Shown: one piece after another, positions 10,231-20,544 of the stretch | Position numbering within the stretch: position 1 is the stretch's first letter | Layout of the letters: every line of letters begins with the position of its first letter | From: Octopus vulgaris | Lineage: Eukaryota | DNA length: 64,000 nt | Assembly: GCA_951406725.2 (NCBI GenBank) | Contig: OX597817.1 | Span: 48,050,001-48,114,000, forward strand | Direction of reading: 5' to 3' | The notes under the pieces: generated by a model | The model's database searches: none | The model's input: only the letters and a program-made list of their open reading frames with translations | What the model was told of the DNA's origin: nothing | Program-made: the position numbers and the translations under genes

Positions 10231-10325
10231 GTTTTGGCTGATGAGTACGGGACACTTGTATTTGCTGCAAAATTTGCAGCTTTTAGTAAAGCTTGTCTTC
10301 GTATGAAACAATTGTACTGAAAAAC
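10231..10325 (+). ncRNA. Type I hammerhead with branched stem II insertion
   Basis: CTGATGA 10238-10244; GTACG..CGTAT stem II with internal hairpins; GAAA 10305-10308; C-AATT-G; GTA 10314-10316; stem I ttttgg/ctgaaa (with G-U pairs). Confidence 0.75.
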
Positions 10326-16295: not shown

Positions 16296-16841
16296 CAGTA
16301 AGGCCTCGATATACGAGCTAATTTGTTCTCAGAGACTGCTCGTAAAGCGAAAACTCGTAAAGCAGAGGAATAATTTCCCATGGTATCAATGTTATAAATA
16401 CTAATTCGTTCCCAGAAATTTTTTTTACCTATAAAATTTATAATACTCGTAAATGAATCGCAATAAAACAGTAGAATGTAAAGAATATTTCATATGAAAT
16501 AAAAAGAATATCAGGATCACTTATAATGACAAATATTATTATTATAATCGTTTTCTGAATCACTTTCATTCGCACTAGACTTGCACACACCATCGCGATC
16601 GCCGATTCACAAGCACTCGTAGACGGACTTATAGATTTCTTTTTAATAAACAAGTCTAGAGTTGCTTGTGTAGAAGCTTCTTTTCGCTCTCTATAAATTT
16701 CTCGGTAACGCACAGAAGCATTTGTTATGGCAATATAAATTTTTGCTCTTCGTTCAATACTTGGATCGTGTGCTTGAAAAATAAAACTCGTAAACCCAGG
16801 GTCACGTGAAACGGGTCCTTGTAAAGTGAAGTATTACTCTG
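16296..16841. mobile_element. Probable pogo/Tigger-like MITE
   Basis: cagtaaggcctcgatatacgag left end; degenerate cttgtaaagtgaagtattactctg right end; repeated ctcgtaa motifs. Confidence 0.5.
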
Positions 16842-16909
16842 TATGTATGTATGTATGTATGTATGTATGTATGTATGTATGTATGTATGTATGTATGTAT
16901 GTATGTATG

Positions 16910-16948
<39 letters not shown>

Positions 16949-17166
16949 TCAATATAGGGTGGCAAAAAATTTCGTAGAATTTATTTGCCACCAGCGGCCT
17001 AATGGGAAAAAATTAAATAGTCATAGACCATTTATAAGTTCAACATCACAATCAAGGAATGGCCATAATAGGCCATTCACCCACTAGAAATAACAGCCAA
17101 AGCTTCAACCGCAAAATAACATTAATTCCGCAAACCAGGAGAAAATTAAAAACATTTACCCTGTAA

Positions 17167-17271
17167 TTTCTTATACGATGCACCGTTTCATCTATTGTTT
17201 AATGGTAAACTAACCTGATTAAATTAAATCAAGCCAATCTTCCATAGGCCGATAGATTCGTCAGTAAGAAA
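17167..17271 (-). ncRNA. Type I hammerhead with large stem II (482-bp family, copy 1)
   Basis: UUUCUUA-CUGACGA-AUCUAU..AUAGAU-GAAAC GG UGCA UC GUA^UAAGAAA. Confidence 0.82.
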
Positions 17272-17648
17272 CAGCCAGATCCAAGCAGATATTATCACGA
17301 GGCACCTCTATCCCTGCCTCGGCAATATCTGACCTAAAATTTTCAAATCATCGCACTCGCGCCAAATTTATCGGCAGCAAATATAAGCCGCCGATTCCAT
17401 TACGGAATTAACCAGAAAATTCATAATTAATCAATATAGGGTGGCAAAAAATTTCGTAGAATTTATTTGCCACCAGCGGCCTAGTGGGAAAAAATTAAAT
17501 AGTCATAGACCATTTATAAGTTCAACATCACAATCAAGGAATGGCCATAATAGGCCATTCACCCACTAGAAATAACAGCCAAAGCTTCAACCGCAAAATA
17601 ACATTAATTCCGCAAACCAGGAGAAAATTAAAAACATTTACCCTGTAA

Positions 17649-17753
17649 TTTCTTATACGATGCACCGTTTCATCTATTGTTTAATGGTAAACTAACCTGA
17701 TTAAATTAAATCAAGCCAATCTTCCATAGGCCGATAGATTCGTCAGTAAGAAA
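17649..17753 (-). ncRNA. Type I hammerhead (482-bp family, copy 2)
   Basis: Same motif, 482 bp from copy 1. Confidence 0.82.
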
Positions 17754-18129
17754 CAGCCAGATCCGAGCAGATATTATCACGAGGCACCTCTATCCCTGCC
17801 TCGGCAATATCTGACCTAAAATTTTCAAATCATCGCACTCGCGCCAAATTTATCGGCAGCAAATATAAGCCGCCGATTCCATTACGGAATTAACCAGAAA
17901 ATTCATAATTAATCAATATAGGGTGGCAAAAATTTCGTAGAATTTATTTGCCACCAGCGGCCTAGTGGGAAAAAATTAAATAGTCATAGACCATTTATAA
18001 GTTCAACATCACAATCAAGGAATGGCCATAATAGGCCATTCACCCACTAGAAATAACAGCCAAAGCTTCAACCGCAAAATAACATTAATTCCGCAAACCA
18101 GGAGAAAATTAAAAACATTTACCCTGTAA

Positions 18130-18234
18130 TTTCTTATACGATGCACCGTTTCATCTACTGTTTAATGGTAAACTAACCTGATTAAATTAAATCAAGCCAA
18201 TCTTCCATAGGCCGATAGATTCGTCAGTAAGAAA
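18130..18234 (-). ncRNA. Type I hammerhead (482-bp family, copy 3)
   Basis: Same motif; one A>G change turns a stem II U-A pair into U-G. Confidence 0.82.
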
Positions 18235-18294
18235 CAGCCAGATCCGAGGCAGGGATAGAGGTGCCTCGTGATAATATCTGCTCGGATCTGGCTG

Positions 18295-18399
18295 TTTCTT
18301 ACTGACGAATCTATCGGCCTATGGAAGATTGGCTTGATTTAATTTAATCAGGTTAGTTTACCATTAAACAGTAGATGAAACGGTGCATCGTATAAGAAA
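18295..18399 (+). ncRNA. Type I hammerhead (482-bp family, inverted copy)
   Basis: TTTCTTA 18295-18301; CTGACGA 18302-18308; ATCTA 18309-18313 / TAGAT 18372-18376; GAAA 18377-18380; GTA 18390-18392; TAAGAAA 18393-18399. Confidence 0.85.
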
Positions 18400-18516
18400 T
18401 TACAGGGTAAATGTTTTTAATTTTCTCCTGGTTTGCGGAATTAATGTTATTTTGCGGTTGAAGCTTTGGCTGTTATTTCTAGTGGGTGAATGGCCTATTA
18501 TGGCCATTCCTTGATT

Positions 18517-18581
<65 letters not shown>

Positions 18582-18597
18582 ATATATATATATATAT

Positions 18598-18915
18598 AAA
18601 GTATCCAACATTGGTGTCTCTGGAAATTTACTACAATTGATCAAGTGTTTCCTGAGAGACAGAACCCAATATGTTGTAGTCGAAGGAGTAAAATCAAGCC
18701 CAGCCAAAGTCAGTAGTGGTGTTCCACAAGGCACTGTGTTGGTCACACTTCTTTTCATCATCTATATCAATGGAATTACTGACAACATCAAGCACAGTAA
18801 CATAAGACTCTTTGCAGATGATTCTAAGATCCAGAAGGTCATCAATGAAGTGGGTGACCGGACATGCCTTCAGTCAAATCTACAGGCTGTCTTCCAATGG
18901 ACAGAAAAGAATTGA
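18598..18915 (+). mobile_element. CR1-like LINE RT fragment
   Basis: RTQYVVVEGVKSSPAKVSSGVPQGTVL..FADDSK; closely similar to the RT at 1550-1860. Confidence 0.88.
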
Positions 18916-19478
18916 TTAAACTGATTAAATTTCTACCTCCCTCCTCCTCTTTCTGTGATTCTTGAAAATTTCATTAACAACCTGAACCACTGCAATATAA
19001 GACTGTCATTTTGCTTCTCATTCGGATTCCCTGATATTTTCGCATGATTGTACCCTAAATCTCTCCACAAAACTGGATTATGAACTATAAGGACATACAC
19101 AAATTTTGTAAGTTCAAGACTTTTTCATCGGATCTCCAAAAGATCGAACTTATCTGCGATTCTTGTAAATTTCAATAACAATCTGTTCCTCTACACGATA
19201 TGACAGTCACTATGCTTTTACTCAGACTTTCCTCTACATGATATGGCAGTCACTTTGCCTCTTACTCGGATTTTCAGAAATTTTGCATGACTGTATCCGA
19301 AAATTTCTTCACACAACTTGATCAAATATTCAATATGAGCTATATGTAGACATGCATAAATTCTATAGGTTTAAAACCTTTCATCGGATCTCCATGAATC
19401 GAACTTTCTTCAATGCAGTTAATCTTACAACCTCTTTTGTATCTACCCCTTTTGATGTTTGGGAATTCTCTGATGTTT

Positions 19479-19566
19479 TTTCGGCTGACGAGTACGGGCC
19501 ATCTGTATTCACTGCATTTTTTGTAGCTTATTAAAGATGTCCTCGTACGAAACGATCGTACCGAGA
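19479..19566 (+). ncRNA. Type I hammerhead with extended stem II (paralogue of 10231-10325)
   Basis: TTTCGG/CCGAGA stem I; CTGACGA 19485-19491; GTACG/CGTAC stem II extended by CATCT/AGATG; GAAA 19549-19552; C-GATC-G; GTA 19558-19560. Confidence 0.85.
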
Positions 19567-19920
19567 TTTTAATCCATTCTTGTTGCTTTTTTCCTATTTG
19601 TAATCACCCCACTTGTCGTATGGTTAACACCATATAGATTTCCGGTGCATCCTAGTTAAGGACCATATTCATGTGAATTCTTTAGAATTCACTAGAATCT
19701 AAATTACTTAACCGAATATATATATATATACAAGTAGTTGAATGAATTATCTTAGTATGGATAATTCGGTTAACCGATACCTGGGTAGCAAATTCAAGTT
19801 AGAAAAACACGGTTGAAGCTACATGCCAAGGGCAGAGATCACGTGCTTTCGTGTGGAAATTTGTGTGTTTTTTTAATACAAATAAATGAAAGAATGGAGT
19901 TGAACGACGATTTAACAAAA

Positions 19921-20019
19921 TTCCTTTATTCTCGACATATGTTTCGAAGGCTGCATATTCCTAATTTTGAAGGAATAAGGGGTGCATTATACCGCCTTCT
20001 CATCAGGAAAAACAAGGAA
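19921..20019 (-). ncRNA. Type I hammerhead with branched stem II in a PLE pLTR
   Basis: Minus strand reads UUUUC-CUGAUGA-GAAGGC..GCCUUC-GAAAC AUAU GUC^GAGAA. Stem I extends through uuccuu/aaggaa. Confidence 0.85.
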
Positions 20020-20544
20020 CTTATGTCAGCATCAAGATGAACAAAAACTTTTAGATGACTGCCCACACGGAGCTCATAGCGATAATGAGTGTTTCTTTAA
20101 AATATTCCGTTATAAGCAGTGACGTCAAAATGGTTGAATGCAGAAGATTCTAGAAGGTTCAATGGTTCAAACAAGGTAGGAGGAGAGAGGTCTAAGAATA
20201 GGAAGGTGACAGGGTGCAAGTCATATGAATGGTGATTTGTTGTTGTTTTCTTTTGTGATTGAATGTCTATGTGTGTGTATGTATATAATTGCATTCATGT
20301 CTATGTGTGTGTATGTGTGTGCGTGAGTGTGTGTGTGTGGTTGGATAGATGCCAAAAACAAACAGTGGTGAAGTGACAGGTTTGTGTCTGTGTGTTTGAT
20401 TGTGCTTACGATAGAGAGAGGGAAAGAGAGAGAGAGGAGGTCGAGGTAGAGAGACAAAGGTAAAACCTAAAAAATTTGTCTATTGGGGTGATGTATAAAA
20501 GGAACCAAATTATTAAAATTCAGGGAGGTTATCTATATTAATCA

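Follow-up and report, generated by a model that had tools for sequence, protein, structure and literature searches.

The window analysed here is a stretch of 64,000 nucleotides from the Octopus vulgaris genome (assembly GCA_951406725.2, contig OX597817.1, positions 48,050,001 to 48,114,000 of the forward strand) and contains an array of a 482-bp unit with hammerhead motifs carrying a long stem II. The locus raises the question of what kind of element this array represents and how it could be copied to new places. Our analysis makes it very probable that it is a young, dispersed, non-coding tandem retroelement of the animal non-LTR retrozyme class, predicted to cut its own RNA, to form circles and to be copied by a Penelope-like element (PLE) into (AT)n. 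The array's family is termed F1, and unit positions are counted on the ribozyme strand with position 1 as the first base 3′ of the predicted cut; S1 and S2 denote two fixed 3′ end sites. The element and its borders consist of the following parts.

16840..16940, no strand: (TA)n/(TACA)n microsatellite at the S2 end, likely target site
16941..18248, minus strand: main arm, 2.7 tandem copies of the 482-bp unit, from repeat finding
18244..18521, plus strand: inverted partial copy (unit positions 334-482, then 1-129) with its 3′ end at S1
18520..18598, no strand: (AT)n microsatellite at the S1 end, likely target site

Near-identical 482-bp tandem units without an ORF had been described in a first-pass annotation of this DNA, and for 16941-18248 this holds: Tandem Repeats Finder gave a period of 482 with 2.7 copies and 99% matches, and no ATG ORF longer than 35 aa lies wholly within the element. 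The array is not tandem throughout to 18521, as had been supposed, since its last 278 bp (18244-18521) are an inverted partial copy which shares a 5-base overlap (18244-18248) with the main arm. The main arm is 5′ truncated at unit position 371 and ends 3′ at unit position 233, which is site S2, and AT microsatellites adjoin both outer ends of the element. The inverted arm and the two fixed ends were absent from the earlier reading; together they are the strongest mechanistic clue. The array was also correctly called unrelated to a first, short-loop array at 1-1110, to which BLAST found no similarity.

Each F1 unit is non-coding, tandemly arranged and below 50% GC, and carries one type I hammerhead. 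A motif scan of the array located four of them.

18129..18235, minus strand: type I hammerhead, copy 1, predicted cut 18137/18136
17648..17754, minus strand: type I hammerhead, copy 2, predicted cut 17656/17655
17166..17272, minus strand: type I hammerhead, copy 3, predicted cut 17174/17173
18294..18400, plus strand: fourth hammerhead, in the inverted arm, predicted cut 18392/18393

The three minus-strand copies with cuts at 18137, 17656 and 17174, and the resulting predicted monomers of 481 and 482 nt, agree with what had been proposed for this locus, while the fourth, on the plus strand with a cut after 18392, had been missed. The elements named then (stem I UUUCUUA/UAAGAAA, CUGACGA, AUCUA/UAGAU, GAAA, ACGG-UGCA-UCGU and GUA) are present in each copy, and the core CUGANGA, GAAA and NUH is intact in all four. 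Stems I, II and III comprise 8, 6 and 4 bp (with A15.1-U16.1 counted), and stem I is open. The 10.1-11.1 pair is A-U in F1, compared with the usual G-C, which is found in the sister family F3; variants of this pair are on record, and the usual G10.1-C11.1 together with a short loop II is typical of, not required for, type I hammerheads. The first-pass annotation had made its reading depend on a core conserved among dispersed copies, and this was found: among 88 context-distinct copies N7 was the sole variable base of CUGANGA (67 C, 10 G, 6 U, 5 A), in a count for which GAAA and GUA were partly fixed by the locus-finding procedure. The expected escape from standard descriptors was likewise seen. 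Rfam gave no hammerhead at gathering score in the window, nor at E<=10 in 16900-20200, thereby missing the array and both long-stem-II neighbours that were scanned, and one published core descriptor permits 7-17 nt from CUGANGA to GAAA where F1 has 68.

The family is dispersed. A 26-nt ribozyme segment had 716 exact genomic matches and its reversed control had 0, and a query with the unit returned 1769 candidates, 40 of which were scored and yielded 202 matches, with 93-100% identity among the matches listed. A hammerhead scan of 400 kb of reversed or complemented sequence found 0 hammerheads. Anatomy, dispersal and conserved core thus support the proposed retrozyme-like family. F1 has non-coding sisters, namely F2 (473 bp, 71% identity over unit 139-316) and F3 (about 77% identical to F1), and F4 (about 400 bp) is similar in anatomy with a weak sequence link to F1. 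F2 and F3 were reached from the 71% match (L050) and one loose contig end, and both of these, considered as candidates for a coding partner, were rejected as they lead to non-coding families. Core variants occur family-wide (L111-L140, L141-L170), with UUGANGA and an extra A in F2 and CCGAUGA in F3 and most of F4.

The most telling evidence on mobility comes from the insertion ends. From 40 fetched loci, a non-random set of best-scoring hits and first-listed places on two chromosomes, we obtained 49 clusters with 83 outer 3′ ends. Forty of these ends lie at S1 (120-137, around 129), 36 at S2 (224-240, around 233) and 7 elsewhere, and (AT)n adjoins 77 of the 83. Both ends were seen in 34 head-to-head insertions: 27 of these pair one S1 with one S2 end, none has S1 with S1 or S2 with S2, and 7 have one odd end. 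The S1-S2 tail is about 100 nt in F1 and the 5′ ends are variable; F2 and F3 end at positions matching S1 and S2, and fold prediction places a hairpin directly 5′ of S1 and of S2 alike. As the ends lie within (AT)n, target-site duplications, which in animal non-LTR retrozymes exceed 4 bp where they occur, are unreadable. According to the accessible text of PMC8557442, PLE insertions have an inverted 5′-truncated copy, a tail of 30-40 bp at one end and a (TA)n bias, and in that of PMC11167929 the tail is delimited by two internal reverse transcription start sites and the protein is predicted to be dimeric. F1 insertions carry this Penelope-like tail signature, with paired fixed ends, an inverted 5′-truncated copy and a (TA)n target. 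As far as PMC8557442, PMC11167929 and PMC4209133 are accessible, the likeness to PLE pseudo-LTRs comprises a hammerhead upstream of two fixed ends, the inverted 5′-truncated copy, the tail at one end only, the (TA)n targets and a palindromic loop III; in contrast to these, F1 is without an ORF and its tail is about 100 nt instead of 30-40. An insertion might accordingly be built as follows. A dimeric PLE protein would nick both strands of an AT microsatellite and start two cDNAs, one at S1 and one at S2, immediately 3′ of the respective hairpin. The cDNAs would vary in length, often exceeding one unit, and would be joined to each other at short overlaps.

A search for coding partners with GIY-YIG-region queries retrieved two families. 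Family A has ORFs of up to 833 aa, a hammerhead with a loop II of at least 42 nt about 570 nt past the stop in 20 of 30 loci, and fixed ends about 125 nt apart. Family D is young and encodes 717 aa; its hammerhead has a 31-nt spacer, its ends are about 70 nt apart and its inverted pairs have one end of each kind. In both families the two fixed ends lie at (AT)n downstream of the hammerhead. Pfam and PDB searches gave no recognition of the family A or D proteins, and the atlas look-alikes of the family D protein carry HTH_animal, GIY-YIG and RVT_1. We take both families to be PLEs, an assumption made on motifs known from such proteins besides the anatomy and these look-alikes. A comparison of F1 with families A and D (two PLE families, with three variants of one) gave no sequence match, with z from -1.4 to 3.2. 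The family A proteins (L091-L094) have a long Asn/Ser-rich stretch between reverse transcriptase and nuclease, where D has a cysteine linker. The window itself holds a family A remnant at 20976-19850 on the minus strand, with a GIY-YIG-like end, a 3′ region and a long-loop hammerhead at 20011-19929; a query with this remnant had 17258 candidates genome-wide.

What template such an enzyme would copy can be approached through the divergence between units, which is 0.55% within an arm, 0.74% between the arms and 3.2% between insertions. The two arms therefore come from one near-homogeneous template; of 143 within-arm variants 119 are private. The predicted circular monomer is strongly folded (-151.5 kcal/mol, z of -7.8 against 60 shuffles, 61% paired; opposite strand -111.6). 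We propose that the hammerheads would cut the RNA into 481-482-nt monomers, which likely circularise, and that the PLE enzyme likely copies the circularised RNA back into (AT)n DNA. The circular RNA is an inference: it would explain the homogeneous units simply, and a linear multimer from a homogeneous source array fits these too. In some long arrays variants recur with a period of 4 (L110), 3 (L073-L079), 3 (L016/L018) or 2 (L101) units, which may reflect either later local duplication or the copying of multimeric circles.

The best surviving alternative keeps the same element and PLE partner and takes an uncleaved linear multimer as the template, with a hammerhead that is slow or protein-dependent and no need for a circle. 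It gains from the PLE of an anole, for which the accessible text of PMC11167929 reports that hammerhead mutants had no effect on insertion in vitro, that unprocessed RNA was the main substrate and that cleavage required protein. An active fold that differs from the minimum-energy fold and the period-2, -3 or -4 variant patterns of some arrays would also suit it. However, arrays can be as long as about 9 units and most of their variants are private, the two arms are far closer to each other than to other insertions, and the core and stems are under selection across families; moreover, circles are formed by coral, mussel and axolotl retrozymes, as stated in the accessible part of PMC7229834. We regard the linear template as rather unlikely, and prefer the circular one.

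The second question concerns how a hammerhead with such a stem II might remain functional. The relevant parts of copy 3 are listed below.

17190..17257, minus strand: stem II region of copy 3, 68 nt
17273..17276, minus strand: 5′ pseudoknot strand GGCU, directly upstream of stem I, predicted
17247..17250, minus strand: 3′ pseudoknot strand GGCC, 5′ side of the stem II internal loop, predicted

Counted from the core, stem II begins with a stem of 5-6 bp, opens into an asymmetric internal loop and ends in an irregular hairpin without branches (17245-17202). The length of the insert had been put at about 57 nt, which is right, loop II measuring 56 nt if the stem is taken as 6 bp and 58 nt if it is taken as 5 bp, while its supposed branched shape was not retained. 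Folded as a single extended hairpin the 68 nt from CUGACGA to GAAA reach -22.8 kcal/mol against -10.5 for the two-hairpin reading, and the proposed second hairpin GUUUA/UAAAC has a pair probability of about 4e-7, so the arm is long and not branched; the pairing pattern in F3 also counted in rejecting the branched insert. In a comparison of F3 with F1 the distal hairpin has one-sided changes only and varies in length.

The long stem II is also not unique to this array, as had been assumed. About 12 other families with 31-77 nt between the core halves were met, several once only and autonomous Penelope-like elements among them, and three further long-stem motifs lie within the window. In 40 evenly placed 10-kb stretches 9 hammerheads occurred at 2 loci, 7 with a short and 2 with a long stem II. 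A long stem II is hence typical of the genome and not special to the array at 16941-18521.

The first-pass annotation had implied that the docking loop is lost. This is not borne out, as a covarying pseudoknot in four related families probably replaces it. The two strands listed above are fully paired in 47 of 53 F1, 9 of 11 F3, 13 of 22 F2 and 13 of 16 F4 distinct sequences, and five of the six F1 misses, all kept in the count, have a rearranged or deleted upstream segment. The letters differ between sequences (GGCU/GGCC, GGCU/AGCC, GGUU/AACC, GGCG/CGCC and AGGG/CCCU). Shuffling of the upstream strand gave P values of 0.08 (F1), 0.009 (F3), 0.014 (F2), 0.013 (F4) and 0.25 (F5), and at least 4 Watson-Crick pairs were formed by 6 of 16 family representatives natively compared with 17 of 240 cross pairs. 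Against the pseudoknot, a test with free register was not discriminating, with 55% of F1 shuffles passing, the F1 and F3 strands can be exchanged for one another, and the pairing is absent from most other long-stem families in the genome. Of the 379 cells that the named structure comprises in 11 F3 hammerheads, 98.7% are paired, a level that none of 500 shuffles equalled (kinship ignored), and 14 double changes are spread over stems I, II and III and the pseudoknot; cross-family MAFFT alignments misplaced stems and were left out of the pair counts. By these substitution patterns, core and stems are under selection across families. Because the sister families keep the fold, pseudoknot included, with compensatory changes, the docking contact is probably preserved, with a covarying pseudoknot of 4-5 bp in place of the canonical loop. 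Catalysis would then be maintained in spite of the long stem II, since this pseudoknot ties the internal loop, on its 5′ side, to the strand that precedes stem I; the AU-rich hairpin lies distal to the contact and would be an extension of variable length.

Pseudoknots of this kind are documented in PMC3088659, in the accessible text of which they are chiefly found in type II hammerheads, where the strand leaving stem II pairs with a strand 5′ of stem I and raises the cleavage rate by orders of magnitude; they are said to be present in all three types. By inspection, the pairing geometry in F1 is as in these type II hammerheads. The differences, as far as that text allows, are that F1 is type I, that a hairpin of 20-50 nt closes its stem II beyond the pseudoknot strand, and that the F1 contact is predicted from covariation only whereas that of PMC3088659 is experimental.

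An improbable alternative is that the upstream strand is a switch, which pairs with the GAAA/stem III strand and stops the circle from being cut again, the pseudoknot being incidental. In a model without pseudoknot energy the predicted minimum is 2-5 kcal/mol more stable than the active fold, which also counts against the main reading, and in the circle model, which ignores pseudoknots, the upstream strand pairs with GAAACGGU; for this copy the minimum-energy fold has GCUGUUUC paired with GAAACGGU and is favoured over the active fold by 5.3 kcal/mol in the circle. However, the blocking helix is mismatched in the GCUA subfamily and not evident in F3 (both by inspection), and in four families the pseudoknot persists although its letters change. 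Switch and pseudoknot could also both hold, in turn.

An ordinary satellite that owes its spread to recombination or a LINE, and its hammerhead to chance or to an origin as a relic, would fit the tandem organisation, the signs of local duplication in a few arrays and the LINE reverse transcriptase fragment beside the array, but is largely refuted and highly improbable in view of the one-of-each fixed ends in 27 of 34 inverted insertions, the (AT)n at 77 of 83 ends, the invariant core, the compensatory changes and the zero control matches.

The class of element is known. As far as PMC7229834 and Li, Clavereau & Pollet 2026 (bioRxiv 10.64898/2026.07.22.740005) are accessible, F1 resembles animal non-LTR retrozymes in its dispersed, non-coding tandem units of low GC with one type I hammerhead each, in the strongly self-paired predicted circle and in the proposed dependence on PLEs. 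The 482-bp unit is above the 150-450 bp given in PMC7229834 and inside the 51-972 bp of Li 2026. F1 differs from animal retrozymes in the 68 nt between its core halves and in a predicted pseudoknot for the canonical loop contact, and its paired fixed ends with inverted arms have no description in the accessible text of either source, nor has any cephalopod; the 35 species of Li 2026 include, in the same text, no mollusc. In Xenopus, only one of nine predicted retrozyme dimers was cleaved in vitro (Li 2026, accessible text). The giant squid genome paper (PMC6962438) mentions, in its accessible part, hammerheads solely as 235 Rfam hits. The literature covered, mostly outside subscription papers, yielded no cephalopod retrozyme and no long pseudoknotted stem II in one; related mollusc motifs may be among the mussel and other invertebrate hammerheads in the supplement of PMC7229834. 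Against this literature, F1 stands out by the long stem II with its predicted pseudoknot and by the documented paired ends.

A wider reading, which we advance tentatively as possible rather than probable, is that octopus retrozymes form a type I clan which docks by a type II-style pseudoknot, has an extendable stem II and is invisible to standard searches, and that the strict pairing of the ends records a dimeric Penelope enzyme which begins at two fixed hairpins of one ribozyme-made circle and rolls round it. Should the fold prove to cleave, cephalopod hammerheads are undercounted by Rfam and by descriptors with a size limit, and long inserts have a natural place in stem II. The paired S1 and S2 ends are more direct evidence for mobilisation by PLEs than the co-occurrence and pseudo-LTR similarity in the accessible published text. 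They also name exact reverse transcription start sites on the 482-nt RNA, which makes circular versus linear template testable with purified PLE protein.

Parts of the unit were present in assembled contigs of 19 runs (7 studies, four organism codes), none of which is recorded as RNA. Expression by depth was rejected: coverage of the unit is high, but two large, probably DNA, runs and the RNA-guessed runs have about the same unit-to-flank ratio, so depth says nothing on expression. One contig end from an RNA-guessed run (X1; window 17164-17193) spans the cut and has G at 9 of the 13 A positions of the ribozyme strand; it shows no other change (compared by eye) and has no genomic match at up to 2 mismatches. 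This single contig end looks like A-to-I hyper-editing of uncut or religated RNA; edits of this kind would abolish the GAAA and might thereby silence the element.

Several further observations were made on the unit and its neighbourhood. At unit positions 13-33 a GUAAAUG followed by a U-rich motif is kept 3′ of the cut in F1, F2, F3, F4 and one family A variant, and could be a splice donor, a promoter element or a protein site. The first array (1-1110) has a spacing of 352 bp, a short CAAUA loop II and a head-to-head arrangement and ends at (AT)n, and a 359-bp family related to it lies in L171. Two solo hammerheads at 10232-10322 and 19479-19566, both on the plus strand, belong to another family and have core halves separated by 57-60 nt. 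LINE-type reverse transcriptase fragments lie beyond the (AT)n of both arrays, at 18598-18915 and 1135-2635.
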